Below are positions 13,661 to 56,435 of a DNA stretch of 64,000 bases, one piece after another. The notes beneath the pieces were generated by a model, which did not search any database, was not told the origin of the DNA, and worked only from the letters and a program-made list of their open reading frames with translations. Source of the stretch: an uncultured bacterium (lineage in GTDB: Bacteria; Spirochaetota; UBA4802; JAGODF01); contig CAKZSV010000031.1 in assembly GCA_937921485.1 (NCBI GenBank), positions 6,437 through 70,436 on the forward strand, given 5' to 3'. Every line of letters begins with the position of its first letter. Positions within the stretch are counted from its first letter, which is position 1. A program made the translations under genes and the position numbers.

Positions 13661-13692
13661 CAAATAACATATTTTTTCACGAGGTGATACGA

Positions 13693-14688: not shown

Positions 14689-14690
14689 AT

Positions 14691-14811
14691 AAGGGAACTT
14701 CTAAAAACTGTTTTAAAGGATGTTCCCTTGTGGGCACAATATATAGGTAAAAACCGCTTTCTTTGATACTCATTTTAAAGATGAAAGCGGTTTTTAGAGG
14801 TGCCCATAATT
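14691..14811. repeat. Copy A of a ~120 bp structured interspersed element (candidate miniature-inverted-repeat transposable element (MITE) or structured small RNA).
   Basis: About 95% identical to 55356-55474. Internal hairpins: AAGGGAAC…GTTCCCTT (8 bp), and TGGGCAC…GTGCCCA enclosing AAAACCGCTTTC…GAAAGCGGTTTT (12 bp). It starts 3 nt after the hydrolase stop codon. Confidence 0.6.
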
Positions 14812-14864: not shown

Positions 14865-15257
14865 CTAAAGGAGCTTTTCGAGTTCCCGAATTACATTAAT
14901 TAGCACAAAGCGCTTTTTCTGCCTAATGCGGCTTTTGATCTTAGGTGATTCCTTGTTGATGGATTCTACTGCGGACCGCACCACCGATTTCACAAGCCCC
15001 TTGAATTCAGGGTGATGTTTGAGGCTCAATGATGCATCGTCCTGCTCCGATTCAATTTCACCGCGGTCTTCCGCATCGCCGTACCGTTTAATGAGTTCCC
15101 GTGCGGCAAGTTCCTTATCGAAATTTACGCTTTCAAGAATATCGCTGCTGCAGATGATCACTTCAAGAAGATCGAATAGCTCCTCAGTGGAGCGTTCCGG
15201 ATATTTTTTCTGCAGAAATTCGAGTACCTGATTGAACCGTTCATCCATTGCGCCCAC
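14865..15257 (-). CDS. Hypothetical protein (130 aa).
   Basis: Clean ORF convergent with the hydrolase gene. No recognisable motif. Confidence 0.45.
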   Translation of the reverse strand: MGAMDERFNQVLEFLQKKYPERSTEELFDLLEVIICSSDILESVNFDKELAARELIKRYGDAEDRGEIESEQDDASLSLKHHPEFKGLVKSVVRSAVESINKESPKIKSRIRQKKRFVLINVIRELEKLL

Positions 15258-22896: not shown

Positions 22897-22907
22897 CTAT
22901 CGTCGTT

Positions 22908-24374: not shown

Positions 24375-24982
24375 AACGCACCCGATTCTACAATACGAAT
24401 TCCCGCTTCACGCATGGAAGCAATCACCTTTGTAAGAGAACCCTCCGGTACATCGATTCCCCTGCACGCGTCGATAATGACGGCCGTTTTAAACCCGATC
24501 ATGTGCGCATCCATTGCGCTGTAGTACACACAATAATCGGTAGCAAGACCGCACACAAATACTTCTGTGGTACCAATGGAATTCAAATAACCATCAAGTC
24601 CAGTTTTAGTTTTTTTATCGTTTTCTAAAAATGCCGAATAGGAATCGATATCGGATGACGTGCCTTTGCGCACAATGAGATCAACCAGCGTCGTGTTTAA
24701 ATCCGGATGAAAATCCGCTCCCCGCGAGCCCTGCACGCAGTGGTCGGGCCAGAGCGTCTGGCGATAGCCGTTTAGCTCAATCTCGTCGAAAGGTTTTTTC
24801 CCTTTGTGATTCGAAGCAAAAGAACTATGGTCGGCCGGATGCCAGTCCTGCGTCGCCACCACGCGGTTGAATTTCCAGATTATCGAATTGATAACCGGCA
24901 CCACTTCGTTGCCGCCGCCCACGGCAAGCGCTCCTCCGGGACAGAAATCGTTCTGGACATCAATAATCAAGAGAACTTTCAT
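24371..24982 (-). CDS. pncA: Nicotinamidase / pyrazinamidase (isochorismatase family).
   Basis: MKVLLIIDVQNDF start, the catalytic D…K…C arrangement (CGLATDYCV), and metal-binding His (WPDHC). The table ORF extends 15 codons upstream to 25027. Confidence 0.8.
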   Translation of the reverse strand: MKVLLIIDVQNDFCPGGALAVGGGNEVVPVINSIIWKFNRVVATQDWHPADHSSFASNHKGKKPFDEIELNGYRQTLWPDHCVQGSRGADFHPDLNTTLVDLIVRKGTSSDIDSYSAFLENDKKTKTGLDGYLNSIGTTEVFVCGLATDYCVYYSAMDAHMIGFKTAVIIDACRGIDVPEGSLTKVIASMREAGIRIVESGAL

Positions 24983-25085
24983 ATTCTGCCACCTCCCTTT
25001 ACACAGCGTGCATCGTATTATTGCCAACTGCTAATGTATCAGCTTAGGGGAATACATGTCTATCGTTTTATTATATTCCGCACAA

Positions 25086-26264
25086 TTATTTCACTGCGCC
25101 TTTCGCGCGCAAATCGGATATTGTTGCATCGGAATAACCGAGCCGATGTAAAATTTCATCAGTGTGCGAACCCATTTCGCATCCGGCCATTTTCGCCACA
25201 TATGTACCCGATGTAAACATGAGGCCACTGCCAAGCTGGCGAAATTCATTATTCTTTGAATCCCGCACGCTCACAATCATTGAGCGCTCACACAGGGGGG
25301 GAGCATTAATTGCTTCGCCAAGCGTCCTCACAGGCTCAACGCACGCGTCGATTGCACTGAAGACTTCTATCCAGTGCGAAAGCGGTTTTTCAGCAATGCG
25401 GCACGCAACTTCGCGTTTCATTTCGATCATCTCCTCTGCGCTTACTACGCCTTTTTCGATCACACCACTCATGCCGATGGCATTTAGAAATGCAGCTAAA
25501 AATTTCGGTTCAACCGGTCCTACTGAAAGGTAGCGCTTATCTGCAGTTTGATAAAAATCGTACAGCGAACCTCCGTTGAATAATTCGTTTTCCGCCTCCG
25601 GTTCGGATGCGCCGCCCAGGAATTGGGATGTTTGAAATGCAGTCATCGCAAAAACGCCGTCGAAGATGGAAATATCGATGTAATCACCCTCACCGGTGCG
25701 CAATCGCCGGATATACGCCGCCATGACTGCAATGCAGAGGTTTTTTGATCCGCTGCCGATATCCGCAATCTGTATGCCGCTGAGTGTCGGCCCCGTTGCT
25801 TTTTTGCCCGAAAAGGATTCCGCGCCCGAAAGCGCCATGTAGTTGATATCGTGCCCCGCGCGATGTGCATAGCTTCCTGTTTGTCCGTATCCGGTGAGAG
25901 AGCAGTAAATGAGCGCGGGGTTGATATCTCGAAGCCGTTCATACCCAAGCCCGAGCTTTTCCATCACCCCGGGACGAAATTGTTCCACCACGATATCGTA
26001 TTCGCGGACAAGCGCATATACCGCTTTCCGCGCCTCTTCGTGCTTGAGATTGAGCGCAAGCGAGCGCTTACCCCTGTTGATGTGCGCATAGGCTGCAGAA
26101 ATGCCGTGAACGAGAGGTGGCACCATGCGCATGAGATCCGGATTTTCTGGATTTTCCACCTTGATGATGTCAGCGCCAAGGTCGGCCAGCATCATGGTGC
26201 CGAATGGTCCGGGCAGCAAATAGGAAAAATCCAGAATTTTCATTCCGTCAAGAGGGGGATGCAT
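25086..26264 (-). CDS. CoA-transferase family III protein (CaiB/BaiF/formyl-CoA-transferase-like).
   Basis: MKILDFS…GPFGTMMLADLGADIIKVE N-terminal signature of family III CoA transferases. The start was chosen at an ATG preceded by GGAGGA. The table start at 26297 is a TTG. Confidence 0.8.
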   Translation of the reverse strand: MHPPLDGMKILDFSYLLPGPFGTMMLADLGADIIKVENPENPDLMRMVPPLVHGISAAYAHINRGKRSLALNLKHEEARKAVYALVREYDIVVEQFRPGVMEKLGLGYERLRDINPALIYCSLTGYGQTGSYAHRAGHDINYMALSGAESFSGKKATGPTLSGIQIADIGSGSKNLCIAVMAAYIRRLRTGEGDYIDISIFDGVFAMTAFQTSQFLGGASEPEAENELFNGGSLYDFYQTADKRYLSVGPVEPKFLAAFLNAIGMSGVIEKGVVSAEEMIEMKREVACRIAEKPLSHWIEVFSAIDACVEPVRTLGEAINAPPLCERSMIVSVRDSKNNEFRQLGSGLMFTSGTYVAKMAGCEMGSHTDEILHRLGYSDATISDLRAKGAVK

Positions 26265-26495
26265 TATTCCTCCGTGATGCGAACATTCACCGTCCAATAT
26301 GCATAGAAGACATTATTGGCAGCTTTTCCGCAAGAAAAAAAGCTCGTGAAGGTGCAAATCTCTTAAGTTCATGATTTTTTCTTCTATATGTTATTGCGCA
26401 GTTTTTTTATCACACCAAAAAAAACGATAGACGAATTACAAAAAAAATACTATAATTAAATTACTCAAAAGGAGATTGCGAAAGAACATAATTTT

Positions 26496-28634: not shown

Positions 28635-28728
28635 ACATCAACTTTCCGTTCTTTTCTTCCACCCTCCAGCTGACGATAATAAAGAAAAGCATCACTCAAA
28701 TCCGTGCAAGCGATGAAGGAGCATTGCG

Positions 28729-29337
28729 GTGAAAATAAAATTTTTCGCGATAGCATTGGTATCTCTTTTTTTCATTATTTCAATCTTTCAGATGTTTCCC
28801 TTTCCCCCTTTCGCGGATGATGTATTCCCCCTCTACAGGTCGGGCTATTTCAGAGAGCTCGACAGACAGTTTGAAGTAATCGCCGATGCGTTCGTGTCGA
28901 TTAAAACAATGTCGCGCCCGGCATATGCATGGATTTTTATTGAAGATATAAAAAACAAACACGGCATTGAAATACGGGTGTACAATTCCCGATCTGAACT
29001 TATTCGCACTCCCGGAGAGGTGGCACCGGGCATGGATGCTACAGTTATACGAATGAGCACAATGCCTTCTCCATCACCGGTTTCTGAAATACGAGGCAAT
29101 CGCTATTTTTCAGCAATACCAATGACGGCGGCGCCTCGCTGCCGTTTTTGTCATACGCAACAGGAAAATACTATTATCGGAATCATCACTTTTGAACGGT
29201 CATTTGATGCATCGACTTTCTATGGGCGTGAGCGCAGTGTCATATTCGGAATTATCGCTTTGATTTCAGCATTCATTCTCCTGATACTAATCCGATGGGA
29301 ACCGTACAGAAGAATTAAAGAAATATTTGACAAATGA
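28729..29337 (+). CDS. Membrane-anchored c-type heme (CxxCH) protein, possibly a Tll0287/DUF3365-like sensor domain protein.
   Basis: N-terminal signal/anchor, a CRFCH heme-binding motif, and a C-terminal TM helix. It lies 95 nt downstream of the MCP on the same strand. Confidence 0.5.
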   Translation: MKIKFFAIALVSLFFIISIFQMFPFPPFADDVFPLYRSGYFRELDRQFEVIADAFVSIKTMSRPAYAWIFIEDIKNKHGIEIRVYNSRSELIRTPGEVAPGMDATVIRMSTMPSPSPVSEIRGNRYFSAIPMTAAPRCRFCHTQQENTIIGIITFERSFDASTFYGRERSVIFGIIALISAFILLILIRWEPYRRIKEIFDK

Positions 29338-29440
29338 CAGTTGCCTGCGCAATGGTTGGCTTCGGTTTAATGTCCTTCATGCGGTCCATTAACTACTTCC
29401 GCCGTTGTGCGGATGATAAAAGTGTAACATTGAGTGACAC

Positions 29441-31525
29441 ATGGCAAACGAACAAAACAATAAAACCCTTATAATCGTTGAATCGCCCACAAAAGCGCGG
29501 ACAATCACGAAATACCTTGGCAACAAATTCATCGTGCTTTCTTCAATGGGGCATATCATTGATTTGCCAAAATCGAGGCTGGCAATTGACATTGCGCACG
29601 ATTTCCGCCCGGAATACATCACCGTGCGCGGAAAGGCAAAGCTCCTCAATGAACTTAAAAAAAATGCCTCGCTCGCTTCCAGCGTGCTGCTCGCGACCGA
29701 CCCCGACCGGGAGGGCGAAGCGATATCATGGCATCTCCGGAATGCACTGGCTGAAAAAAACAGCAATATCCATCGAGTCGAATTCCATGAAATCACCGAT
29801 TCAGCTATCAAAGAAGCAATAGATCATCCCCGCGATATAGACCTGAATCTGGTCAATGCACAACAGGCACGGCGTGTTTTAGACCGCCTGGTGGGATATC
29901 ATCTCAGCCCCATTCTCTGGAAAAAAGTAAAAAAAGGGCTTTCAGCGGGAAGAGTGCAATCGGTCGCGCTTGCCATCATCTGTGAACGCGAAAAGGAAAT
30001 AGAAGCTTTCGTTCCTGCGGAATACTGGTCGCTCGACGCTCTGCTCAATCACAATCATAAGAAATTTCGCGCATCTCTCATATCATTCAGAGGAAATAAA
30101 GAATACCTCAAAAAAAAGGAACACGCGGATGAAGTCATCGCTCATCTGAACGATAAAACATTCAAAGTTATCTCGGTTACCAAAAAAGAACGGAAACGCA
30201 GACCGCTTCCTCCCTACATCACCAGCAAGCTTCAGCAGGATGCGGCCAACCGCCTCGGTTTTACATCTGCAAAAACGATGATGGTCGCGCAGCAGCTCTA
30301 TGAAGGTGTTGATATTACCGGCGAAGGCCCGGTTGGACTCATCACGTACATGCGTACGGATTCAACCAGAATTTCACCCATTGCCATGGAAGGGTTGAGA
30401 AACTATATTTCTGCGCATTATCCGCCCGAATACCTTCCCGAAACGCCAAACACCTATATGAATAAAAAAGGTGCTCAGGACGCTCATGAAGCGATACGCC
30501 CCACAGATGTAGCCCGAGATCCGGAATCAATAAAAAATGATCTCACTTCCGACCAATACAAGCTCTACCGGCTCATCTGGAAGCGGTTCGTGTCTTCGCA
30601 GATGACCGGCGAGGTTTCACTTGCCACCTCGGTTATTCTGAAAGCCGGAGACTGTGAATTTCGCGCATCAGGAAGCATCGTGCTTTTTGACGGATTCACC
30701 GCCGTGGAAAAAGAGGAAAAAACCGGGAGAGATACTCTGCCCGAACTCAAGGAGGGCGACACCCCAAAGCTTATGGAGCTTGTTCCCGAACAACACTTCA
30801 CCACTCCTCCTCCCCGCTATAACGATGCATCGCTGGTAAAGTTTCTGGAGGAATCGGGCATCGGCCGCCCATCTACCTATGCGCCTACGATAAATACGCT
30901 CATCAAACGATACTATGTCATCCGTCACGGCAAACAGCTCGTCCCGACGGCGCTCGGAAGAATCGTGAATGATATCCTTGTAAAATTTTTTCCGGAACTC
31001 ATCTCAATCGGATTTACCTCATCCATGGAAGAGAAGCTTGACCTTATCGAAGATGCGAAATCAGAATGGGTCGGCATGATACGTGACTTTTATTCTCCCT
31101 TTATTGAGACAGTGGAACATGCCGAAAAACATATTGAGGAGATAAAAGGCGTCCTCGATGAAGACACTGACTTCACATGCGAGAAATGCGGCAGGCCGAT
31201 GAAGAAAAAACTCGGCAAATACGGCTTTTTTCTTGCGTGTTCCGGATTTCCGGAATGCAGAAACGCCCTCCCCATTCCGCTGGGAAAGTGCCCGATAGCC
31301 GGTTGCGGCGGCAATGTGGTGAAACGCTCCTCAAAGAAAGGGCGTCCTTTCTATTCCTGCACGCGATATCCCGATTGCACCTTCATCACGCGTGACGTGC
31401 CTGCCGAAAAAGATTGTCCGCAGTGCGGCAGCGCGCTTTTCGTGAAGAAGAAAAAGGGAGAAGGCGAAACAGTTTTCTGCCTTAAAGAAGGATGCGGGTA
31501 CCACATCGACATTCTGAATGAGTGA
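29441..31525 (+). CDS. topA: DNA topoisomerase I with C-terminal zinc-ribbon repeats.
   Basis: TOPRIM region (LIIVESPTKARTI; ATDPDREGEAI), active-site region (GLITYMRTDSTR), and three C-terminal Cys4 zinc ribbons. Confidence 0.95.
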   Translation: MANEQNNKTLIIVESPTKARTITKYLGNKFIVLSSMGHIIDLPKSRLAIDIAHDFRPEYITVRGKAKLLNELKKNASLASSVLLATDPDREGEAISWHLRNALAEKNSNIHRVEFHEITDSAIKEAIDHPRDIDLNLVNAQQARRVLDRLVGYHLSPILWKKVKKGLSAGRVQSVALAIICEREKEIEAFVPAEYWSLDALLNHNHKKFRASLISFRGNKEYLKKKEHADEVIAHLNDKTFKVISVTKKERKRRPLPPYITSKLQQDAANRLGFTSAKTMMVAQQLYEGVDITGEGPVGLITYMRTDSTRISPIAMEGLRNYISAHYPPEYLPETPNTYMNKKGAQDAHEAIRPTDVARDPESIKNDLTSDQYKLYRLIWKRFVSSQMTGEVSLATSVILKAGDCEFRASGSIVLFDGFTAVEKEEKTGRDTLPELKEGDTPKLMELVPEQHFTTPPPRYNDASLVKFLEESGIGRPSTYAPTINTLIKRYYVIRHGKQLVPTALGRIVNDILVKFFPELISIGFTSSMEEKLDLIEDAKSEWVGMIRDFYSPFIETVEHAEKHIEEIKGVLDEDTDFTCEKCGRPMKKKLGKYGFFLACSGFPECRNALPIPLGKCPIAGCGGNVVKRSSKKGRPFYSCTRYPDCTFITRDVPAEKDCPQCGSALFVKKKKGEGETVFCLKEGCGYHIDILNE

Positions 31526-43473: not shown

Positions 43474-45702
43474 ATGAAGTTTAATGATGCCGATAGGAAA
43501 CTCCTTTTGGACCTTCCGAAAAGGATTTTTCTCTATACCGATCTTATTGCCTACACGGTGAATATTCCCGTTACGCTTATCATTGTGCTTCTGCTGCTCG
43601 AACTTTCAGGTGGTAAAATAGCGCTTTTGCTCTCGATTGTCGCCGTGCTTGTGGCGATAGCGCTTTTCCTCACCAGAACACAGATGCGCGCTCATTTTAA
43701 ACCCATTCTTGCATATTTTGAATCGCTCTTCGATGGCACAACAATATCCAATGACCAGTATTTGCTTGCCCGAGATCGGCTCTATTCCCTTTCGCGCCTG
43801 CGCACGCGCGATGCGGTCATTGCATGGGCGGTGCTCATGCCGGTCGCAATCATCGCGATACATATTTTCTTCACGCCGACGCTCACAGCACGGATTATCA
43901 TCTACTGTTTGCTTTTCATGAACATCATATCCGTTGGCTGTCTGTACTATCTTGTCATCGAATATCAAACCAGAAAGATTTCGTTACTTGGAATATTCTC
44001 ACGCATCATAGAAGGTGAACGCACACACCATGTGCGCCTCAGCCTGGTACTCTCGGCAACTGCAATTGCATTTGTGGCATTTTTCAGCACAATCATGATC
44101 ATAACGGTTTACTATTTAATCAATCGCTCGCTTGAAACATCACTTAGAAATCAGATGCACAATGTCGCGCACATCGTCGATTACCACCTTTCAAAGACAT
44201 CGGAAGTCGCCATGGGCGACCTTGCACTTCGAACATTCGACTTTGCCATTGTTGCAGAAAGAGAGCACAGTTTTATTTCGAATATAAAAATCGGAGAAAA
44301 CGGCTATATCATTCTTGCGGATTCTCACAACAAAATTCTCATTGCACCGCACGCGTCGATGATTGGAAAAAATCTTTCGGACTTTCCCTGGGGCGAGAAG
44401 ATTATCGGCGCAGACAGCAACACAATACTCCCGGTCAAAACAGCCGACGGTGATGTGCTGATGTACGTTCTCACCAACACCTTCGGCTTCCGCACCATTG
44501 TGACGGCACCTGCTCGCTATATAGAACGAATGGGATTTTCAACAGTGCTGCTGATGGCGATACTTTTCATCGCAGGATTTATAATTACGGGAACAAGCCT
44601 CTACGTGTTCACTTCCGCACGACTGAAAGCGCTTGAACGGTGCAGGGAATTCCTTGAAGAAATGTCGAAAGGCGATATTTCAAAAAATCTCTATTCGCTT
44701 TCAGACGATGATGTAGGCGCCATCATGGCATCACTCAGCAAATTTATCGAAAAACTTCGTGCCGCCATCACCCACATTTATGATATTTCTCACGAAATGG
44801 CAGTCTCCTCTCAGCAGATGTCCCAGGCGGCAACAAGCTTCGCGGATAATGCTCAGAATCAGGCGGCAACCGCGGAAGAATGCACCGCAACCGGAGAAGA
44901 AGTGTTTTCGGGTGTTGAAAACATCGCCGCAGGTGCGCAGGTGCAATCCGAAAACATCCGCCAGCTCATGAGATTGATTGAAAATCTCACTGATAGCATC
45001 GACATGATGGCTAAAATGATTTCTGAAGCAGCGGGCATTAACGATGATATATCACAGAGAGCCAGGCGCGGTGATGAGCTTCTGCGCAATATGAACAGCT
45101 CCATGCTGCGCATCACCGAAAGCTCCGGGAAAATGCAAAACATCGTTGAAATCATCAATGATATTTCCGACAAAATAAATCTTCTTTCTCTGAACGCGGC
45201 AATCGAAGCAGCACGCGCCGGCGAAGCCGGAAGAGGGTTTGCCGTGGTAGCGGAAGAAATTTCAAAATTAGCCGACCAGACTGCGGCCAGCATCAAAGAA
45301 ATCGACCAGTACATAAGAAGCAACGCCAATGAAATCAGCGCGGGAATGGCGAGCATCTCCGAAACCACCAACACGATGATGTCCATCATCGAGGGCATCA
45401 ACCGCATTTCGGCAATGATGGATGAAATCGCAAACAACATGTCCAATCAGAAATCCATCAGTGCAACCGTTCATGAAAACGCCGCAGCTGTACAGAGCCG
45501 CGCCGAGGAAATTACCTTCAGCACCGATGAACAGAAGAAAGCGATGGATGAAATCGTCAAATCCATTTCGCATATCAACGAGCTCACGCAGGCAAACGCC
45601 TCAGGTGCAGAGGAAATCTCCGGTAGCTCGGAAAACCTTGCGGCCATGGCTGAGACGCTTAAGGAGTCGGTTGAGTTTTTCAGACTTACAGAGAAAAAAT
45701 AG
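43474..45702 (+). CDS. Methyl-accepting chemotaxis protein.
   Basis: Multi-TM N-terminus, HAMP, and MCP core ([32 protein letters not shown]). Confidence 0.85.
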
Positions 45703-45824
45703 TACCCTATGCCCATTTTATGTGACGCGCAAGTTGTTATCAATACCACACTCTGAAGAAATAATAGTTGCAAAATTCCGTATCTGTTATGCTGCTTGTA
45801 GCATTATTTTAAGAAGGGTGTCGC

Positions 45825-46418
45825 ATGTATTCTCTATTCCAGAAAGGCGGCCCGCTCATGTGGCCGATTTTAGTCTGTTCCATCATTGCACTGGCCATTT
45901 TTGTTGAACGGCTGATTGTTCTTTTCAAAGCAAGAAATTATGCACGCATTCCGATACTGACATATCAACGCCATCTGAAAACAGAGGATGCCGATACGCA
46001 ATCGTACACGCCGGATGGCATTGTCCGCGATCTAATAAACACTCCCGGCATTGCAAGCTTACCAGGAGAAGATGCTGAACGCATACTGTTCAGGCGCGCC
46101 ACGCTCTTTATCCGGAGCCTTGAGGAACGCCTCAACTGGCTTGCCATCATCGGCAGCATCACGCCACTTTTAGGGCTTTTAGGCACGGTCACCGGCATGA
46201 TAAAAGTGTTTATGGGAATACAGAGCATGCAGGGGCAGATCAACCCTTCTGCTCTTGCAGGCGGCATCTGGGAGGCGCTCATCACCACCGCGGCGGGATT
46301 GATTGTGGCAATACCCGCAATTATTGCGTATCATTTTTTTGAAGACCGCATTGACGATCTAAGCGGAGAAGTAAAAGACTGCATTGGACACATTATTGAG
46401 TCGCAGAAATGGAAATAG
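45825..46418 (+). CDS. exbB: MotA/TolQ/ExbB proton-channel family protein.
   Basis: Three TM helices and conserved C-terminal region (GLLGTVTGMIKVF…ALITTAAGLIVAIPA). GAAGGG RBS. Confidence 0.8.
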   Translation: MYSLFQKGGPLMWPILVCSIIALAIFVERLIVLFKARNYARIPILTYQRHLKTEDADTQSYTPDGIVRDLINTPGIASLPGEDAERILFRRATLFIRSLEERLNWLAIIGSITPLLGLLGTVTGMIKVFMGIQSMQGQINPSALAGGIWEALITTAAGLIVAIPAIIAYHFFEDRIDDLSGEVKDCIGHIIESQKWK

Positions 46419-46807
46419 AACGCCGAAAAAAAGTATCTGTTGATTTCAATATCGCGCCGCTCATTGACGTGGTATTTCAGCTGCTTGTGTTTTTTGCGCT
46501 CACATCGTATTTTGTGACCAATCCCGGCATTGAAGTTGCGCTCCCTGGAGCGGAAAGCGCAGTCAATGTCCAGAAACAGCACACTATCGTGTACATCACA
46601 CGAGAAGGTTCAATTTACTGCAACACCAATAAAACAGAGCTTCAAGAACTGACGGCTATATTGAAGGGCATGCCATCGCAGTCAAAAACGGTTATTCTTA
46701 AATCCGATGAAACGGTATCGCTGGGACTGGTGGTGAACGTCATCGATGCGATAAAATCGGCCGGCATCACAGATCTCATCATTGCAACGGAGAAGAAATC
46801 CGATTGA
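46409..46807 (+). CDS. exbD: ExbD/TolR biopolymer transport protein.
   Basis: N-terminal motif (INIAPLIDVVFQLLVFF) typical of ExbD/TolR. Overlaps exbB. Confidence 0.8.
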   Translation: MEIERRKKVSVDFNIAPLIDVVFQLLVFFALTSYFVTNPGIEVALPGAESAVNVQKQHTIVYITREGSIYCNTNKTELQELTAILKGMPSQSKTVILKSDETVSLGLVVNVIDAIKSAGITDLIIATEKKSD

Positions 46808-47364
46808 AAACGTCACGGAACAACGCATTTTTTTTGCGAGCGCTTTGCCTCTCGTTCATTTTGCACGCGGCGATTCTTTTTGCTTCGTATTCAGAACACG
46901 ATGTTTTCTCACACACCGAACGCATCCATATTTCTCTCCGCGCGCACCAGATACTGCCGCGTGTCGATATGCCATCTGCAAAAACTACGGTAAAAAACAG
47001 CGATGCGAAGCAACCTCATGCTTCTGGCATCGTGGCAGCGCAGGCACAGGCACTATCTTCCGAAGAGGCAGAAACCACCATGCTTCGCTACACCGATATG
47101 ATCCGCCAGCGGATTCAGGAAGCTTTGATATATCCTCATCATGCGCGAAAAGATGCAATCGAAGGACGTACTTTTGTGCGATTTTCAATTAACTCCGGTG
47201 GTGAGCTACTCTCAGTTGAACTATTGCGCTCATCGGGGTATTCTATTCTTGATGAAGAAGCGCTTGCAGCAATCCGCAGAGCATCGCCGTTTCCAAAAAT
47301 TCCTGAATCGCTCAATAAATCTCACCTCACCGTGGCTCTTGGGCTTGCTTTTGAATTGAAATAA
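46804..47364 (+). CDS. tonB: TonB-family energy transducer (C-terminal TonB domain).
   Basis: N-terminal anchor, then a C-terminal TonB-like region (YPHHARKDAIEGRTFVRFSINSGGELLSVELLRSSGYSILDEEALAAIRRASPFP). Overlaps exbD. Confidence 0.7.
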   Translation: MKTSRNNAFFLRALCLSFILHAAILFASYSEHDVFSHTERIHISLRAHQILPRVDMPSAKTTVKNSDAKQPHASGIVAAQAQALSSEEAETTMLRYTDMIRQRIQEALIYPHHARKDAIEGRTFVRFSINSGGELLSVELLRSSGYSILDEEALAAIRRASPFPKIPESLNKSHLTVALGLAFELK

Positions 47365-47430
47365 TACTTGCAAAAATATATCACCTGAATTATTCATCAA
47401 AAAACGAAAAACAAAAATTGGAGCGTTCTT

Positions 47431-49011
47431 ATGGAAACAAGCAATCGTACTCCAAGGCAGATTCTTGAAATTAAGGGAGCGTTTCTTTTCTTTATTTTCT
47501 GCATACCGATGGGTCTACTATCAGGAACATTTCAGATTCTTGCGAAAGTTGGTTTGAAAAATGCGCTTTTCACATTAACAATTTTCACAATCATAACCAT
47601 CCTTTCATTCTATGTATATACACGAAAAAAAAATCTTCAATCAGCGAAATTAATCGAATGGATTATTTGCAGTATCATAATAACGGCTATGATAATAACC
47701 CGCTATCGATATGCACTTCTATTGGATTGGACATATGCCGCGCAGGCATATCACATTGCAGCCTTTTCAGTATGCTTTCTTATTATGATGCAATTTTTTT
47801 ACAATAAAAAACTCTATATCGTATTTTCAATTTTCTATTTTTTCAATTACGCATTATTCCTGATAATTGCAGCTTCAAAGGGCGTTGCTTTTCATCCACA
47901 TTCAGTTATCAATGGCATAATCGTTCATGATGGGATACAGATTCATCGTGAAATATTTTTTTTCACTGTTCTTGTAATGATATCATATCTCGCCTACAGA
48001 AACATTCCTATTATCGACAATTACGATAGGAAAAACGAAAAACAGCGTAGCATTATTCAGCAAAAATCTAATTCCATCAGTGAACTCTATGAAGAAACGC
48101 GGGTAAGGATTAACGATCTTTTTGCGCGCCTTGAGGAACAAAACACAACCGTTGATGAAATAGCAGGACGTATTCAAAGCCAGGCTGCCTCGTTCGAAGA
48201 GATGTCCGCTACGATGGAAGAACTTTCGAGCGCTGCTGAGCAGATATCAAATCTGGCAACCAGCCAGATGAAAGAAAACACCCGCATGGATGAAATCATC
48301 GGTGAATTAAAAAAAGAAAAGGAGAACTCCCGAAAAAACCTCGATTCGACGTTGCAGGATATGGATTCGGCGGTGGCGCTCACCAGCACAGGCCACGAAA
48401 GAATCGGCATGGTTACCTCAACTATTGAAGAAATAAGCCAGCAGAGCAACCGGATCGCCGAAACGGTTAATATCATCATCGAAATCGCAGATAAAATCAA
48501 CTTGCTTTCACTTAATGCTTCGATTGAAGCTGCCCGAGCCGGTGATTACGGACGAGGTTTTGCCGTTGTCGCCGATGAAATCGGAAAACTAGCCGTCCAG
48601 ACATCAGACAGCATTAAAGAAATTGAACGCGTTCTTGCGCTCAGCACAAAGACCACACGCGATGGCGTGGAGGTTATCCAATCAGCGGCTGTCATTATCA
48701 AGAATATGATTGAAAATATTGAAGGAGGTGCAAAAAAAATAAAAATACTGAAAGAAAGCATGATGGCAGAGGAAGAGCGTATTGCTCAAATAACAGAACA
48801 AATGCGTCGTAACATCGAGCTATCGCGAAATATAGATAACGGTGCGCGAGAGCAAAAGGATGCCATTGCCGCCACAACAATTGCCATAGAACAGGTAAAT
48901 GAATCGATGACACGAATGGTAAGCGGCATGAATGATTTAGCAATAATCGCAAAACATATCTACGAGGATGCGAAAACACTTCTTGAAAAATCTTCGGAGG
49001 CATCGGAGTAG
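47431..49011 (+). CDS. Methyl-accepting chemotaxis protein with a polytopic membrane N-terminus.
   Basis: Six or more hydrophobic helices, then the MCP core ([32 protein letters not shown]). Confidence 0.8.
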
Positions 49012-49166
49012 TTCGACAAGAGAAGTTTTCTTCTGAATACATACATTTACATTAATTCCAGTACAAGATTGTTTTTCCAAAAAAATTATTGACAAAATTT
49101 ATTATAAATATTAACTTAGTTAAAATTAACAGTGTTTATATTATAACAAAATAGGAGTACTTCGAT

Positions 49167-50393
49167 ATGGCACAAGTTACAGTTCTTGGCGGTTGTGGTG
49201 CGGTAGGAAGCCGTGCGGTAAGAACCCTTGTTAAACATCCTGAATTTTCGCACGTAGTGATCGCAGATTACAACAAAGAAAAGGCCCATTCAATCCAGGC
49301 GGAACTCGCTTCTCCAAAAGTTTCGGTACATTGGTTCGATGCACATGATCGAAAGAGCATTTATCAGGCCATTGCCGGAAGCGATGTGGTGCTCAATTGC
49401 GTTGGCCCATTCTATTCTACAGTAAAACCGATTCTTGAAACAAGCATTGATGCAAAAATTAATTATGTCGACGTCTGCGATGATGTTGATGTCACTATTG
49501 ATATTCTGGAAATGAATGATACAGCAAAGCAAATGGGAGTGTCTGCCCTCATTGGAATGGGAAGTTCCCCAGGCGTTACCAATATTATCGCAAAGTTTGC
49601 TGCTGATTCCCTTTTTGACGAAGTTGAATCGATAGATATTTTTCATACACATGGAGGGGAACCTTTTGAAGGTGAAGGCGTAATAGGCCATCGCTTCCAC
49701 TGCATGTCGATTAATATTCCCATGTATCTCAATGGAAAATTGGAACACGTAAATTTTTTTAAGGATGACGGCATCGCGCTTCGCCAGAAATTCAATTTCC
49801 CCGGGATCGGAGAAACGCTGCTCTATCCCTACCCTCATCCCGAGCAAATCACCCTTCCTCGATATATCAACCTCAGGCAGGTTACCAACAAAGGAAGCGT
49901 TCTTCCCGACGAGTATTATAATCTCATACGCGATATTTGCGCACTCGGGCTTGCCAGCAAGGAACCGATAACCGTGAAAGGCCAAAAAGTTGTACCGGCC
50001 GATTTTGCCACAGCATTCATCATTCGCGAAAGGGAAAGAATTCTTCATGAAACTACATTCGGCGAACAACGCGGCTGTGTGAGTGTCATCGCGAAAGGTA
50101 TAAAAAATGGAAAACGTGAGGAATACCGGGTGCATATGGCATCTAAAAGTCAGGCGCTGGGCGAAGGAACCGGAATTCCCGCCGCGATGGGAGCAATTGC
50201 GATGCATAAAGGGCTCGTGCCCGGCAAGGGTGTGATGCCACCCGAGGCATGCATTAATCCCAATGAATTTATCAGTCTTATGCCGGAAATCATGAAGATC
50301 GATGATACTTCAAAAAGAGACGGCGCATTTGCCGGTTTTCTGGTAGAAAAAATTAATGATGACGGCTCGATCACTGAAATGAAAATACTATAA
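49167..50393 (+). CDS. Saccharopine dehydrogenase family NAD(P)-binding protein.
   Basis: N-terminal Rossmann motif (VLGGCGAVGSRAV) and saccharopine-DH-like length and organisation. AGGAG RBS. Confidence 0.8.
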   Translation: MAQVTVLGGCGAVGSRAVRTLVKHPEFSHVVIADYNKEKAHSIQAELASPKVSVHWFDAHDRKSIYQAIAGSDVVLNCVGPFYSTVKPILETSIDAKINYVDVCDDVDVTIDILEMNDTAKQMGVSALIGMGSSPGVTNIIAKFAADSLFDEVESIDIFHTHGGEPFEGEGVIGHRFHCMSINIPMYLNGKLEHVNFFKDDGIALRQKFNFPGIGETLLYPYPHPEQITLPRYINLRQVTNKGSVLPDEYYNLIRDICALGLASKEPITVKGQKVVPADFATAFIIRERERILHETTFGEQRGCVSVIAKGIKNGKREEYRVHMASKSQALGEGTGIPAAMGAIAMHKGLVPGKGVMPPEACINPNEFISLMPEIMKIDDTSKRDGAFAGFLVEKINDDGSITEMKIL

Positions 50394-50402
50394 GGCGCTA
50401 TC

Positions 50403-51995
50403 ATGAAACGCTTAGAATTGCCATATATACTTGCACTCGATCACGGTACATCGGGTTGCAAGACGGCAGTTGTTTCCTCCAGAGGGCGTATTATCGATTT
50501 CGAATATGTTCCTACCCGCATACGGTTTCTTCCCGACGGCGGTGCCGTCGCCGATCCTGAAGAATGGTGGCGAGCCTTCGCGAAAGGGACTCAAAAAATC
50601 CTAAGAAGGAGAAACGTTAATTCCAAACAGATAGCTGCGATTGCGGTTTCAAGCACCTTTTCGAGCACCGTTGCCGTTGATGCAAATGGCAGCCATCTCA
50701 TGGATTCCATGACGTGGATGGATTCGCGCGGCAGGCACATCATCAGGCGCATGGCTCGCGGCATAATAAATGTCGAGGGTTATGCCCTTAGCAACTTGGT
50801 TCGCTGGATCAGAAAGACAGCCGGAGGCCCCTCGCTTTCCGGAAAGGACGATATAGCCCATGTGCTTTTCATCAAGCACCATCATCCCGACGTATATGCG
50901 CGAACGTATAAATTTCTAAGTAGTAAAGATTATTTTGTTTTCCGCCTCACAGGTGAATGTTCAGCATCGTACGATTCGATGGCCCTCTTCTGGGTCTGCG
51001 ATATTCGCAACATCAACCATATCAGATATGATGACGGCCTCATCAGGCAATTTGGCATTGATCAAGATAAATTACCTCCGTTGCGCCATTCAACTGATAT
51101 CGCGGGAAGAATATCATCGACAGCCGCTAAAGAATTAGGTCTATCGTCGGATGTACAGGTCATAATGGGAGCTGCGGATCATCAGTGTGCGCTTATCGGT
51201 TCCGGCGCAGTTCGCGATTTTGAAGGACATCTGTACATCGGCACATCATCATGGATTGAATGTCTTATGCCTTTTAAAAAAACCGATCCCTTTCACAGTA
51301 TTGCAACTCTGCCCTCTGCCATCACGGGAAGATATCAATGTATAAATGAACAGGATGTGGCTGGCGGCGCTCTTACCTTTCTTAAAGAAAATATTCTCTT
51401 TCACAAAAACCTCATTCGGCATCGTTCATCAATTCATGATCCCTACTTTGAAATGGATAGAATTGCCCGGGAAGCGCCCCCCGGCTGCGATGGGCTCATC
51501 ATGACACCATGGCTCAACGGAGAGCGAAGTCCAGCAGACAGCGCAACTCTGAGAGCCGGAATTTTCAATATTTCAATGTCGAGCACACTCGACCATCTCA
51601 TTCGCGCGTGTTATGAGGGTGTTGCATTCAATACTCGCTGGAATTTAGAGTACGTGGAAAAATTCATTGGTAAAAAATTCGAAACATTGCGCATGATAGG
51701 AGGTGGGGCAAAATCATCTCTCTGGTGCCAGATATTCGCTGATGTGCTCAATCGAACGATTCTTCAAATGGAAGATCCGATCCAGGCCAATGCACGCGGT
51801 GCCGCTTTTTTAGCGCTTATGGGGATCGGCGAGCTTGCTATTGAAGATATTGGTTCTCTTGTACCGCAAAAGCAAGGGTTTGAACCGCTCGAACCACACC
51901 GCGGCCTTTATGACTCTCTTTTTAAAGAATTCAAAATGATTTACAAAAATAACCGGGCTATGTATTGGAGGCTTAACAGGAATAAAGCACCATAA
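50403..51995 (+). CDS. FGGY-family carbohydrate kinase (xylulokinase / glycerol-kinase-like).
   Basis: N-terminal ALDHGTSGCKTAV (actin-like ATPase phosphate-1 motif) and the FGGY C-terminal domain (…MIGGGAKSSLWCQIFADV…). Confidence 0.8.
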   Translation: MKRLELPYILALDHGTSGCKTAVVSSRGRIIDFEYVPTRIRFLPDGGAVADPEEWWRAFAKGTQKILRRRNVNSKQIAAIAVSSTFSSTVAVDANGSHLMDSMTWMDSRGRHIIRRMARGIINVEGYALSNLVRWIRKTAGGPSLSGKDDIAHVLFIKHHHPDVYARTYKFLSSKDYFVFRLTGECSASYDSMALFWVCDIRNINHIRYDDGLIRQFGIDQDKLPPLRHSTDIAGRISSTAAKELGLSSDVQVIMGAADHQCALIGSGAVRDFEGHLYIGTSSWIECLMPFKKTDPFHSIATLPSAITGRYQCINEQDVAGGALTFLKENILFHKNLIRHRSSIHDPYFEMDRIAREAPPGCDGLIMTPWLNGERSPADSATLRAGIFNISMSSTLDHLIRACYEGVAFNTRWNLEYVEKFIGKKFETLRMIGGGAKSSLWCQIFADVLNRTILQMEDPIQANARGAAFLALMGIGELAIEDIGSLVPQKQGFEPLEPHRGLYDSLFKEFKMIYKNNRAMYWRLNRNKAP

Positions 51996-52027
51996 AATCG
52001 GCATAAAAACAGGTGACGGTGTGACGA

Positions 52028-52672
52028 ATGACAAGACCCGCGCGAACTCGTGAACAAGTTGATCAAATCAAGAAACAAATTCTCACAAGCGCATTAGCAA
52101 TCCTAAGCACCCAGGGATATAATGCACTCACTATGCGAAGTATCGCAGCCGAATGCAAAATGACAGCCGCAAATATTTACAACTATTTCCACAGCAAAGA
52201 CGACATCTATCTTGAACTTGTTATTCAGGGATTCGAGTTCTTGCACTCTGCCATTAGCAATGCACTTGAAAAACCATTGCCCCCAAAAAAACGGCTTGCA
52301 GCAGTGATAGATGCATATTATGAATTTGGAAAAATATACGGTGAACATTACGATATCATGTTTACACTACCCACACCAAAATTCAACGATTTTGTGGGAA
52401 CGCCACTTGAGGAAAAAGCGCGTAAGGAAATGGAACTATCAGAAAAAATAATTGCGAAACTGGTACAATTTACCCGGGTATTCATATCCGATCAAGAAAA
52501 ACATGCGGACAAAGAAAGCATACTCAGGGTAGTTGAGGGCTGGGGAGCAATTCACGGCATCGTATCGCTTTCACGGAGCCGCGTGCTGATGTATGTCACC
52601 GCCGATGCAGATTCGGCGTATAGACGCCTTCGCGACGATTTGATTGCAACGATTGTGACACACGAATCATGA
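52028..52672 (+). CDS. TetR/AcrR-family transcriptional regulator.
   Basis: N-terminal HTH (ALTMRSIAAECKMTAANIYNYFHSKDDIY). Confidence 0.8.
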   Translation: MTRPARTREQVDQIKKQILTSALAILSTQGYNALTMRSIAAECKMTAANIYNYFHSKDDIYLELVIQGFEFLHSAISNALEKPLPPKKRLAAVIDAYYEFGKIYGEHYDIMFTLPTPKFNDFVGTPLEEKARKEMELSEKIIAKLVQFTRVFISDQEKHADKESILRVVEGWGAIHGIVSLSRSRVLMYVTADADSAYRRLRDDLIATIVTHES

Positions 52673-52674
52673 TT

Positions 52675-54243
52675 CTATTCCCATTCAATGGTGCTCGGCG
52701 GTTTCGATGAAATATCCAGCACCACGCGATTGATGCCCCTCACTTCGTTGATAATGCGGTTTGAAATGCGACGCAACAATTCCTCTGGAAGATATGCCCA
52801 ATCAGCGGTCATCGCATCCACGGAGGTGACGGCGCGAATGGCGATGACATTCTCATACGTGCGCTTATCGCCCATCACTCCCACTGAACGAACGGGAAGA
52901 AAAACTGCAAACACCTGCCAGAGGCTGCGATAAAGACCTGCAAATTTTATTTCTTCCACCAGTATGTCATCCGCCTCCTGAAGAATTTTAATTCGCTGCG
53001 GCGTCACCTCGCCAATGATGCGGATGGCAAGTCCTGGTCCTGGAAAGGGATGCCGGTAGACGAGCTCTTCGCTCATTCCAAGTTCAATCCCGAGTTCGCG
53101 CACCTCATCTTTGAAAAGCTCCTTCAGAGGTTCAATCACCTTTCCCGACTTGATGAGTTTGAGCACTTCCGGCACGCGGTTATGGTGGCTTTTTATCGTA
53201 TCGGAAGGGCCTTTTGTAGAAACTGATTCGATCACATCGGGATACAGCGTTCCCTGTGCAAGATAATCGAAACGTCCGATTTTTTTTGCTTCTTTCATGA
53301 ATACATTAATGAATTCACGTCCAATGATTCTTCGCTTTTGCTCCGGGTCATCAACGCCTTTGAGAAGCGCAAGGAAACGCTTTGAGGCGTCCACATAGAT
53401 GAGATTGAGTTTCATGTGCCGCTTGAATCGCTCAATTACCTTTTCCGATTCATTCTTGCGAAGAACACCGTTGTTTACGAACACGCAGTAAAGCCGATCG
53501 CCAATTGCCTTCTGCAAAAGCATCGCCGTGACTGATGAATCGACGCCGCCGGAAAGCCCCAGAAGCACAGTTCCATCACCCACCTCTCTTCGAATCGCCT
53601 GCACAGATGATTCAATAAACGATTTCATGGTCCACGAAGGCGTGAGCTTACAAATTTCAAACAGAAAGTTTTTCAATATCTGCTGACCGTTGACGGTATG
53701 ATAGACTTCCGGATGGAATTGTACCCCATAGATTTTTTTCTCGCGATGTTCGATAGCTGCAGTCTCCGCGTTTTCCGAACTTGCAACAATTTCAAATCCT
53801 TTCGGGGGCACTGCGACTTTGTCGCCATGGCTCATCCATACGGTCTCTTTCTTTTTAAGGCCTCTAAAAAGCGGGCTCTTTTTCTTTATTTCAATAACAG
53901 CACGACCGTACTCCCTTCGTGAGGCGCCTTCGATGTTACCTCCAAAATGCTTCACCAGCGCACAGAGGCCGTAGCAGATACCAAGCACGGGAACACCCAG
54001 ACTCAAAATCTCCGTTTGAAGCTGGGGCGCGTCTTTTTCATATATCGACGAGGGGCCGCCGGACAGCACAATCGCGGCAGGCTTTTCCCCGGCAATTTCC
54101 TTCCATGTTTTATGGAATGGAACGATTTCCGCATATACCTTCTGTTCGCGAATTCTTCGTGCGATAAGCTGTGTGTACTGCGAGCCGAAATCAAGGATAA
54201 CGACTTTTTGCTCCGGAACGCCCGAAAGAGCGTGGTCGATCAT
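52675..54243 (-). CDS. guaA: GMP synthase (glutamine-hydrolysing).
   Basis: N-terminal GATase (catalytic Cys in GICYG), PP-loop SGGVDSSV, and the C-terminal dimerisation domain ending …IEWE. Confidence 0.95.
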   Translation of the reverse strand: MIDHALSGVPEQKVVILDFGSQYTQLIARRIREQKVYAEIVPFHKTWKEIAGEKPAAIVLSGGPSSIYEKDAPQLQTEILSLGVPVLGICYGLCALVKHFGGNIEGASRREYGRAVIEIKKKSPLFRGLKKKETVWMSHGDKVAVPPKGFEIVASSENAETAAIEHREKKIYGVQFHPEVYHTVNGQQILKNFLFEICKLTPSWTMKSFIESSVQAIRREVGDGTVLLGLSGGVDSSVTAMLLQKAIGDRLYCVFVNNGVLRKNESEKVIERFKRHMKLNLIYVDASKRFLALLKGVDDPEQKRRIIGREFINVFMKEAKKIGRFDYLAQGTLYPDVIESVSTKGPSDTIKSHHNRVPEVLKLIKSGKVIEPLKELFKDEVRELGIELGMSEELVYRHPFPGPGLAIRIIGEVTPQRIKILQEADDILVEEIKFAGLYRSLWQVFAVFLPVRSVGVMGDKRTYENVIAIRAVTSVDAMTADWAYLPEELLRRISNRIINEVRGINRVVLDISSKPPSTIEWE

Positions 54244-54770
54244 TTCGATCCTCCAAGCTCTTTCAGATAATTTTTGTATCCTTCTTTCTGCAATTTTTCA
54301 TTTCGCGCGATCACTTTTTGCGACTGACGCACCCGATACTCTTCAAGAGATTTTGATAGCGAAGAATTGGAAAGAGCGAGCATTGAAAGTGCGAAGAGTG
54401 CGGCGTTTGCACCTCCGGATTTTCCCACCGGCATGGTTGCAACGGGAATGCCGGACGGCATCTGCAAGATGGAAAGCACGGAATCGAGTCCTCCCATAAG
54501 CGATGTCTCAATCGGCACGCCAATGACCGGCAGCGTGGTGAATGATGCAACAACGCCGGGCAGATGTGCAGCACCGCCTGCCGCGGCGATAATGACTTTT
54601 ACGCCTCGCTCCTTCGCGGATTTCGCCCAGGCCTTCGTTTCTTCCGGCGTGCGGTGCGCTGATGACACAACCACTTCAAAAGAAATGCCAAACTCCTCCA
54701 GGATTTCAAAGCATGGTGCAAGTTTGGGCATATCGGAATCGCTTCCCATGATGATTGCAATATCTGGCAT
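54240..54770 (-). CDS. purE: 5-(carboxyamino)imidazole ribonucleotide mutase (PurE).
   Basis: MGSDSD start and AAGGAAHLPGVVAS motif. Overlaps the guaA start. Confidence 0.9.
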   Translation of the reverse strand: MPDIAIIMGSDSDMPKLAPCFEILEEFGISFEVVVSSAHRTPEETKAWAKSAKERGVKVIIAAAGGAAHLPGVVASFTTLPVIGVPIETSLMGGLDSVLSILQMPSGIPVATMPVGKSGGANAALFALSMLALSNSSLSKSLEEYRVRQSQKVIARNEKLQKEGYKNYLKELGGSK

Positions 54771-54888
54771 ATCTTCACTCTCCGATATTCATTTTTCCGC
54801 ACTGTAGCGAATGCATTATAAAAGTGTCAAGTGTTTTGAGTAAAGGAAATATTATCACCATGTTACATTGTTATAGCCTTGACGATTA

Positions 54889-55257
54889 TTAAACAGTGGT
54901 CGGCGTTTGGAAACGCTTATATATCTGTATGATGATAAATCCTAAAAGCGTGGTATAATCGGTAATCGTGGCTGACTCAACTGAAAATATTTTATCCATT
55001 ACCAGCATACCGCTTACTACCAGCAGCAGCACAACGCCCGCTAACGCACGTGATGATCTTTCCATTATATGCTCAATCACGAACTCGTTCTCTGCTCCGG
55101 GTTTTTGAATAAAAGAAAGTATCATGAATGCAATTGAAACGATTGCCTGAACAACATATACCAGATTTGCCACCACCTCAATCGTTGAAGGAACTGATGG
55201 CACCAGGTAAAAAGTCGATGAAAGGATAATGCCCACAAACACGTTTCCTAAATACAA
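54889..55257 (-). CDS. Hypothetical polytopic membrane protein. The 5' end appears truncated; the first in-frame start is a TTG at 55257.
   Basis: Three to four TM helices. The frame continues upstream without a start codon through 55258-55365 (…YKLSAALYVYGALAALCAFIIIPAEWRRLLAWLL) until a stop inside repeat copy B. Confidence 0.45.
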   Translation of the reverse strand: MYLGNVFVGIILSSTFYLVPSVPSTIEVVANLVYVVQAIVSIAFMILSFIQKPGAENEFVIEHIMERSSRALAGVVLLLVVSGMLVMDKIFSVESATITDYTTLLGFIIIQIYKRFQTPTTV

Positions 55258-55355
55258 AAGCCACGCGAGTAGACGCCGCCATTCTGCAGGAATAATTATA
55301 AATGCACATAATGCTGCAAGAGCCCCGTATACATATAAAGCGGCAGATAATTTAT

Positions 55356-55474
55356 AAGGGAACTTCTAAAAACTGTTTTAAAGGATGTTCCCTTGTGGGC
55401 ACAATATATATGATAAAACCGCTTTCTTTGATGCTAATTTTAAAGATGAAAGCGGTTTTTAGAGGTGCCCATAA
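55356..55474. repeat. Copy B of the ~120 bp structured interspersed element.
   Basis: About 95% identical to 14691-14811, in the same orientation. Substitutions fall only in loop or unpaired positions (ATAGGTAAAAACC vs ATATGATAAAACC; GATACTCATTTT vs GATGCTAATTTT). Confidence 0.6.
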
Positions 55475-55667
55475 TAAGATCCAAAATCATCCCGTGCAGC
55501 CTGAATTCACTTTTTTCTTGACAAATTTCAATAGAAAATCGAATTGTATTATAGTAAATACAAATATACAAATAAGTATTCAGCCGGTTGTTATTTCTGT
55601 AGTGAAATCGATATCGAAAATTGTGCAATAATTATTCTGAGATTAATTCGCTATCGTTACCGCGTTA

Positions 55668-55679
55668 TTTATCGCGATA
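55668..55679. promoter_or_regulatory. Perfect 12-bp palindrome TTATCGCGATAA, a candidate GntR-family operator.
   Basis: The palindrome lies 24 nt upstream of the GntR start codon. Confidence 0.3.
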
Positions 55680-55703
55680 ATCATATTTCAATATTATGCA
55701 ACA

Positions 55704-56435
55704 ATGAAAATCAAACTCGACAACGCCCAGATACCCCTGCACTACCAGATTGCGGATTATCTTCTGGTGATGCTCGAAAAAGGCGAGCTTTCTTTCGACG
55801 AACAAATCCCGCCAGAGGAAGAACTCAGAGAACTTTTCGGCGTAAGCCGCACCACCGTCAGGCGCGCCATGGAGCATCTGCTCCATAAACGCATTGTGCA
55901 CCGAAAACAGGGAAAAGGATCGTTTTGGACTGAATCAGCAAAGGAGCTGAAAAATGAAAAACTTGCCGGATTAAACCGTCAGATTTTCAGCATTAACAAA
56001 GAAACGAAAGTGCGCGTACTTTCAAAACGAACTGAAAAATGCCGGGAGGATATTGCAGCACTTCTGAAATTACCCCCCGGCAGCGGTGTCGTCATTTTTG
56101 AACGCCTCAGACTGCTCAATGATAAACCGATGAGCTACACTACCAACTATTTACCCTTTAAAATCGGTTCGCGCATAAAAAAATCACATCTCGAAAAAAA
56201 GACCATGCTTGAAACCCTTGAGGATGTAGTAAAACTCGAGTTGGGCACCATCGAACATGAAGTAGAAATCACCCGCGCGAACTCCGAGATTTCGGAACTT
56301 TTACACATCCCCTCACTAAACCCGGTGCTCACCATACGGACATCGGTATTTGATAACGACGCCAGACCAATCGAAGTGGTATGGACGCATTTCGTAGAGC
56401 ATATGTATAAATTCAAAGTAGTGCTTGGAAGATGA
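55704..56435 (+). CDS. GntR-family transcriptional regulator (HutC subfamily with a UTRA effector domain).
   Basis: N-terminal winged HTH (ELFGVSRTTVRRAMEHL) plus a C-terminal UTRA-like domain (about 150 aa). Confidence 0.8.
   Translation: MKIKLDNAQIPLHYQIADYLLVMLEKGELSFDEQIPPEEELRELFGVSRTTVRRAMEHLLHKRIVHRKQGKGSFWTESAKELKNEKLAGLNRQIFSINKETKVRVLSKRTEKCREDIAALLKLPPGSGVVIFERLRLLNDKPMSYTTNYLPFKIGSRIKKSHLEKKTMLETLEDVVKLELGTIEHEVEITRANSEISELLHIPSLNPVLTIRTSVFDNDARPIEVVWTHFVEHMYKFKVVLGR

Follow-up and report, generated by a model that had tools for sequence, protein, structure and literature searches.

Probable deletion next to a MITE truncates a membrane-protein gene upstream of purE in an uncultured Leptospirales-like spirochaete

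Introduction

Gene inactivation by MITEs and IS elements, and deletions in the neighbourhood of such insertions, are textbook events. Adjacent deletions associated with IS elements and MITEs and recombination between repeat copies are both known for transposable elements. Members of the IS5 family make 4-bp target duplications and PIF/Harbinger-Tourist elements make TAA duplications. The repeat described here shares with these groups a short TA-containing target, a duplication of 3-4 bp and ends that begin with GG(G), a likeness of ends and target only. To our knowledge, PATEs (derived from IS200/IS605) and REP/REPIN elements make no target-site duplication. Both are, as is the present repeat, small, hairpin-rich and dispersed, with a short motif conserved at the insertion site.

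The locus lies in a window of 64,000 nucleotides (positions 6,437 to 70,436 of contig CAKZSV010000031.1, assembly GCA_937921485.1) from an uncultured bacterium of the Spirochaetota. A sequence-only reading of the window had noted a minus-strand reading frame that can start only at a TTG and whose open extension upstream runs into a copy of a repeat, and had proposed that a mobile element inserted into the first codons of a membrane-protein gene. We use the label orfX for this gene, an uncharacterised membrane-protein gene of approximately 201 codons located between a GntR regulator gene and purE. The proposal was evaluated by homology searches with the fragment, by a census of the repeat and by comparison with orthologous loci, for which the syntenic region acs-GntR-spacer-purE-guaA was fetched from relatives with purE homologues as anchors. 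The features discussed below are collected in Table 1.

Results

A reading frame without its 5' end

The open reading frame at 54889-55257 on the minus strand encodes 122 amino acids when read from the TTG given in the ORF listing. Upstream of this TTG the same frame stays open for 36 codons (KFPYKLSAALYVYGALAALCAFIIIPAEWRRLLAWL; minus-strand translation of 55380-54889), none of which is ATG, GTG or TTG. The extension is preceded by an in-frame TAG 11 nt inside the core of the repeat, which begins at 55358 with GGGAAC. These statements of the sequence-only reading were all reproduced. The chance that 36 codons contain no start codon is approximately 0.18, calculated as (61/64)^36; the start-less run is thus not unusual on its own, and the case for truncation rests on homology and comparative evidence.

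A word-indexed search of 5.8 billion proteins with the 158-aa frame as the query returned a sole match, the public protein P0001 that is encoded by the fragment itself. The orphan-ORF reading that followed from this search was overturned by an exhaustive phmmer search of 1.84 billion representatives, which recovered a small membrane-protein family. The best matches were P0122 (E value 4.8e-35) and P0123 (E value 1.8e-34), both of 201 aa, at 46% identity, and five weaker members of 134-213 aa were also found. Query residues 3-153 aligned with residues 45-197 of the two best matches (45 or 48 as the first residue), and by tblastn residues 46-196 matched the window at 55356-54907. A profile search with alignment A3 returned more distant members of 197-219 aa and did not return P0122 and P0123. 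Searches for a functional assignment gave little: the window fragment had zero matches in Pfam, the best Pfam match among the orfX homologues was DUF6064 at 19.3 bits, which is under the cut-off of 27, and the NCBIfam search for orfX gave nothing meaningful. Metagenome scans for closer orfX relatives found none. Linkage to purE was not seen for other members of the family, so their context gives no functional clue.

The start-less stretch aligned with residues 47-83 of the 201-aa homologues and, because it did so together with the ORF, it is conserved coding sequence, as its hydrophobicity had suggested to the earlier reader. Of the 36 codons of the extension, the last 33 belong to the ancestral coding sequence of orfX; they begin with the tyrosine codon at 55356-55354 and make up the first hydrophobic segment that the remnant still has. 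The first three codons (KFP) come from the end of the repeat and the duplicated target. All full-length relatives have approximately 46 further N-terminal residues, with the consensus LxPLVNxExTLLLFxTxIFHxxYFGxxHPxS and one more hydrophobic segment. The similarity of the window fragment to the family is significant but confined to residues 47-197, the N-terminal 46 residues being absent. The gene is therefore truncated at its 5' end, and the point of truncation is the end of the repeat to the nucleotide.

That the short ORF functions as a whole gene from TTG 55257 or GTG 55242, with the frame upstream of it open by chance, is very unlikely. The public gene call agrees with such a gene (P0001 has 117 aa and was called from the GTG at 55242), as do an AGGA 3 nt upstream of this GTG and the intact frame. 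However, homology to the family extends over the 33 upstream codons, 9 of 11 residues being identical directly past the repeat (YKLSAALYVYG in the window and WKLPAALYVYG in P0123), and every full-length member of the family has 197-219 aa. The two candidate starts correspond to residues 37 (TTG) and 42 (GTG) of the fragment and lie inside a predicted transmembrane segment (residues 32-55), which makes them unlikely as native starts.

Across its 155 codons the remnant shows neither a stop nor a frameshift, and the residues that are invariant in the family are retained (alignment A3), which indicates that the event was recent or that a truncated product is still made or tolerated. We infer that the remnant is a pseudogene, its frame being shut by the TAG in the repeat, its candidate starts lying in the middle of a transmembrane segment and its ancestral promoter region being gone. 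P0001 would then be a gene-caller artefact.

The repeat and its family

The window contains two copies of the repeat, at 14684-14810 (copy A) and 55349-55475 (copy B), which are 94% identical. The terminal inverted repeats are 16 nt long (GGGAACTTCTAAAAAC and GGGCACCTCTAAAAAC, 14 of 16 positions matching), and the ends are conserved across subfamilies. Copies were counted with a degenerate pattern of the element in one genome per species. The census gave at least 82 loci, all in MAGs of the Spirochaetota/Leptospirales; DAIUKG01 and CAZCYH01 each contributed dozens. The Leptospirales are strongly MITE-enriched according to a published census (PMC11602168). When the 82 copies were aligned with their flanks, the boundaries were sharp. 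The core measured 107-117 nt in the 76 complete copies, and no ORF fits inside it. The 4-bp flanks were identical on the left and right in 68 of these 76 copies (62 with ATAA and 6 with TTAA), and the first flank base co-varied between the two sides (Fisher p = 3.4e-6), which indicates that the flanks are a real target-site duplication. An identity as an IS200/IS605-type PATE or a REP element was rejected on the same co-variation, ATAA occurring with ATAA and TTAA with TTAA.

A filled and an empty site were found as a pair. Locus L042 (CAZCYH010000002.1), whose flanks are 89% identical to window positions 22140-30066, contains a copy at the position of a lone TTAT in the window. With terminal inverted repeats, a 4-bp duplication, a high copy number and this pair of sites, the repeat is, on its sequence features, a genuine MITE whose mobility the sequence-only reading had already argued for. 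Inverted pairs of terminal repeats 200-4000 nt apart in the MITE loci enclosed ordinary genes and no transposase, so that a parent IS was not found among them. A diverged copy, 72% identical to copy B, is present at 8385-8506 of L086, a locus that has no MITE next to purE.

Both strands of the repeat fold into structures far more stable than those of shuffled sequence (z approximately -6.2). Copy B has a terminal hairpin (GGGAAC..GTTCCC) and a second hairpin (GGGCAC..GTGCCC) that encloses an inner stem, with 55415-55426 paired to 55448-55459. When each copy was folded separately, 47 of the 56 distinct copies (L002-L083) formed an inner hairpin with 8 bp or more of unbroken helix. The inner stem (55415-55459 in copy B and 14750-14794 in copy A) is paired through at least four stem sequences, for example CCGCTTTC/GAAAGCGG, TCAGGAGTT/AACTCCTGA and TTAGATTTTT/AAAAATCTAA. 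RNAalifold analysis of 22 copies recovered the two outer stems only, and these are uninformative because they are fixed by the search pattern. The inner hairpin is flanked by an A-run and a T-run and resembles a bidirectional intrinsic terminator. Copy A lies 4 nt past the TAA stop of an ORF at 13684-14688 (334 aa) and ahead of a convergent ORF at 14865-15257, a 3' intergenic position at which a terminator-like hairpin could matter.

The GntR-purE spacer in relatives

The comparison with an element-free orthologous locus that the sequence-only reading had suggested was provided by L088, in which orfX has an intact, longer N-terminus. The start of the gene there does not correspond to 55257, and the stretch upstream of that point is conserved as coding. 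L088 is fairly distant from the window (45% amino-acid identity for orfX, 76% DNA identity for purE), and the contig includes only the end of the upstream divergent gene, which at the DNA level matches the GntR gene of the window.

The spacer of L084 contains the other end of the gene. Its N-terminal remnant matched the orfX N-terminus with tblastn E values down to 1e-12. A reading in which the ORF of L084 matches the family as far as residue 52 was rejected, since the DNA alignment assigned its last 17 codons to the purE promoter block. The 55-aa gene annotated at 3644-3811 of this locus is thus a chimera and a second mis-annotated remnant of orfX. The remnants in the window and in L084 are complementary, which indicates that orfX is ancestral at this site and was independently eroded in several lineages. 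L090, from the closest relative of the window, is uninformative because a toxin-antitoxin pair replaced the whole spacer. The DNA between the GntR gene and purE differs in each of six loci (the window, L084, L085, L086, L088 and L090), and from these comparisons the spacer looks like a hotspot of replacement.

Two parts of the spacer were conserved. On the purE side, a promoter block that belongs to purE itself is conserved, so expression of purE-guaA should be independent of orfX transcription. On the GntR side, a TTGACA box and a palindrome (TGTATTATAGTAAATACAAATATACA) at 55518-55575 are nearly invariant in the window, L084, L085, L086 and L088, and this block probably serves the divergent GntR/acs unit as promoter and operator. 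It stays intact, the MITE being approximately 45 nt away. A promoter and terminator scan of 54500-56000 gave a number of sites no higher than in shuffled sequence.

Table 1. Positions of the features at the orfX locus and of the GntR-purE spacers in related loci. Window positions count from the first nucleotide of the window; spacer positions are those of the locus named.
Feature	Position	Strand	Evidence or remark
MITE copy A	14689..14809	+	ATAA duplication at 14689-14692 and 14806-14809
Empty target site TTAT	25086..25089	.	MITE-filled in L042
purE promoter block (CTCAAAACACTTGACAC...)	54771..54840	-	Conserved in L084, L086/L087 and L088
orfX 3' remnant	54889..55356	-	Codons equivalent to 47-201 of the intact family; stop at 54889-54891; phmmer, alignment A3, tblastn
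Candidate starts (only two)	55240..55257	-	TTG 55255-55257; GTG 55240-55242
Start-less extension	55258..55365	-	36 codons; translation and alignment A3
Gene-side ATAA flank	55354..55357	+	Has the form of a target-site duplication; minus-strand TTAT overlaps ancestral (D)Y codons
MITE copy B	55358..55470	+	113-nt core; terminal inverted repeats 55358-55373 and 55455-55470
TAG closing the frame	55366..55368	-	Within the left terminal inverted repeat of the MITE
GntR-side ATAA flank	55471..55474	+	Part of ancestral TTATTAT, also at the orthologous position of L088
Ancestral GntR-side spacer	55475..55703	.	Palindromic operator-like block and TTGACA box; collinear with L084 and L088 to the MITE edge
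Spacer, window	54771-55703		MITE copy B and orfX 3' remnant
Spacer, L084	3437-3827		purE 86% identical; 55-aa ORF made of orfX codons 1-38 and 17 codons of the purE promoter block (CTCAAAACACTTGACAC)
Spacer, L085	3346-3968		purE 85% identical; unrelated DNA, 446 nt
Spacer, L086 (and L087)	3204-3997 (L086)		purE 84% identical; unrelated DNA with a 143-aa ORF resembling a ribbon-helix-helix protein
Spacer, L088	330-1348		Metagenome (JGI) contig carrying P0122; orfX intact (201 aa), with purE directly after it, then guaA; no MITE
Spacer, L090	5013-6000		CAZCYH01, closest relative, same 90% purE cluster; MNT(Polbeta)/HepT toxin-antitoxin pair

Breakpoints and missing DNA

Both sides of the locus could be placed against the ancestral arrangement. 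By blastn, window positions 55891-55479 were collinear with L084 3186-3600 (83% identity) and positions 54840-54600 with L084 3758-3998. At the outer breakpoint, collinearity of the GntR side with L084 stopped at 55479, 4 nt from the flank of the MITE. At this junction L088 reads GGCGTTATTAT followed by GGTTTT, where the minus strand of the window reads GGATCTTATTAT followed by GGGCAC. Since L088 shares the TTAT at the outer junction, this TTAT is ancestral; its distance to the orfX ATG downstream is 73 nt in L088 and approximately 43 nt in L084. At the inner breakpoint, the repeat abuts TTAT followed by AAATTATCT, and the codons TAT-AAA-TTA correspond to Y47-K-L, where protein homology begins. 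These alignments place each breakpoint exactly at an intact end of the MITE and at a TTAT that its ancestral context already contained.

The ancestral interval between the two breakpoints is 211 nt by L088 (481-691) and approximately 181 nt by L084. Read off L088, the missing interval held the start codon, 46 codons and a putative promoter-like site (TTGACA-17-TAATAA). The missing 46 N-terminal residues were not encoded beyond the repeat or elsewhere in the window (tblastn). Because the missing codons are absent from the far side and the far flank is ancestral spacer, a simple insertion is excluded by this comparison.

The original proposal, in which the element entered orfX within its first few codons and no other DNA was lost, is accordingly hardly credible. 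Its appeal lies in the junctions, since ATAA stands at both flanks as it would after a clean 4-bp duplication, and the deletion is visible only by comparison with other loci. In addition, removal of the 113-nt core alone puts an ATG at 55490-55488 in frame, as read from the sequence. A real insertion, however, is reversed by removing the core together with one copy of the 4-bp duplication, and this leaves the ATG out of frame. The far flank, including this ATG, is collinear with the L084 spacer, 43 nt upstream of the orfX start, and both the family and the intact orthologue in L088 have 46 more N-terminal residues. What is missing is thus 46 codons, the start codon and 43-73 nt of the 5' region, judged from the homologues and L088. 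The part of the sequence-only reading that placed the truncation at a mobile element stood, and the part that explained it by simple insertion did not: either an insertion came with a deletion of approximately 180-210 nt or two insertions recombined.

A deletion of approximately 200 nt that had nothing to do with the element, with the MITE landing later on the junction or the deletion ending at the MITE edge by chance, is improbable. The spacer is prone to deletion and replacement in all relatives examined (L084, L085, L086 and L090), and the deletion in L084 arose independently and has no MITE. Against this stands the position of both breakpoints at intact MITE termini and at the preferred ATAA target, an unlikely coincidence. 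The MITE ends are moreover complete, so no deletion ran into the element.

A third possibility is that the assembly collapsed two real MITE copies flanking the 5' part of orfX, in which case the gene would be interrupted and not deleted. The window comes from a metagenome-type assembly in which a pair of MITEs around approximately 200 nt could merge. We assume in addition that a repeat of 113 nt is comparable in length to a typical short read. An independent Logan assembly of ERR9287890 (L001, equivalent to window 44889-55377) breaks 20 nt inside the MITE core, which shows that the repeat confuses assemblers. A collapse nonetheless has no positive support and is unlikely here: the window contig continues across the repeat into unique sequence on either side, approximately 6% of positions differ between copies A and B, so not all copies are identical, and orfX would still be disrupted at codon 46/47. 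More generally, the MITE family fragments short-read assemblies of these genomes; scan hits in L012, L025 and L028, among others, lie within approximately 150 nt of the end of the locus.

Proposed history of the locus

The history that we favour is a MITE insertion with an adjacent deletion of approximately 180-210 nt at orfX, which probably left the pseudogene remnant upstream of purE. In the ancestral state, orfX would have occupied the space between the divergent GntR regulator gene and purE with its approximately 201 codons. The MITE would now join the TTAT located 43-73 nt upstream of the orfX start to the TTAT within codons 46-47. The DNA lost between these sites would have included the likely promoter, the ribosome-binding site, the ATG and 46 codons with the first hydrophobic segment.

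We infer that the deletion was made by the element. It could have arisen by recombination between two copies inserted in the same orientation at both TTAT sites, by intramolecular transposition leading to an adjacent deletion, or by slippage between the duplicated TTAT and the second TTAT. All three routes leave one copy with ATAA on each side, as observed, and the data do not discriminate among them. An intermediate, with the MITE at one TTAT site and the intervening DNA intact, was not found, and how insertion and deletion followed each other, and by what mechanism, is accordingly deduced from the end product.

Discussion

The comparison corrects a public annotation, the 117-aa hypothetical protein being what is left of a 201-aa membrane-protein gene that lost its 5' end. 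In addition, it provides a cleanly resolved case of MITE-linked gene loss, with both ancestral junctions reconstructed from relatives, and documents a high-copy MITE family (113 nt, ATAA/TTAA duplication) of uncultured Leptospirales-like spirochaetes. The case of orfX is one of ordinary genome decay and opens no long-standing question. The MITE family appears to be undescribed, but of a known kind. A broader role is a speculative reading to which we give little weight: the family, which is conserved in many species of Spirochaetota, could be a structured one, with a terminator-like hairpin whose inner stem is kept by compensatory changes, that remodels loci by adjacent deletions, insulates divergent or convergent genes and contributes to the origin of a GntR-purE hotspot.

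The repeat matched no Rfam family at the gathering threshold. Below that threshold, copy B (55354-55492) resembled RF02638, the Enterococcus sRNA EF0605_EF0606, with a score of 34.1 bits against a gathering score of 219 (E = 4e-5 in a search of 231 nt). The whole model (1-179) was matched, and the two share a layout in which a terminal hairpin precedes a nested one that contains an inner stem. Copy A, which is 94% identical to copy B, gave no match to RF02638 at E <= 1. Membership in RF02638 was rejected, given a score far under gathering and the lack of a match to copy A, and what is left is a resemblance of layout that may reflect chance or a distant similarity of repeat families across phyla.

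The closest described systems are the bacterial MITEs and the elements known for adjacent deletions. The repeat agrees with bacterial MITEs in being short and non-coding, in its terminal inverted repeats and 4-bp duplication, in its dozens of copies per genome, in its presence/absence polymorphism between relatives and in its mostly AT-rich flanks. It differs from them in its conserved internal layout of two hairpins, which goes beyond what terminal inverted repeats require, and in that no autonomous parent IS with matching ends was found in the MITE loci. In the comparison with adjacent-deletion systems, no intermediate was found here, and slippage at TTAT (4 nt) would yield the same product. 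As in those systems, a single copy joins points that were approximately 200 nt apart, with its ends intact and the preferred target at both junctions.
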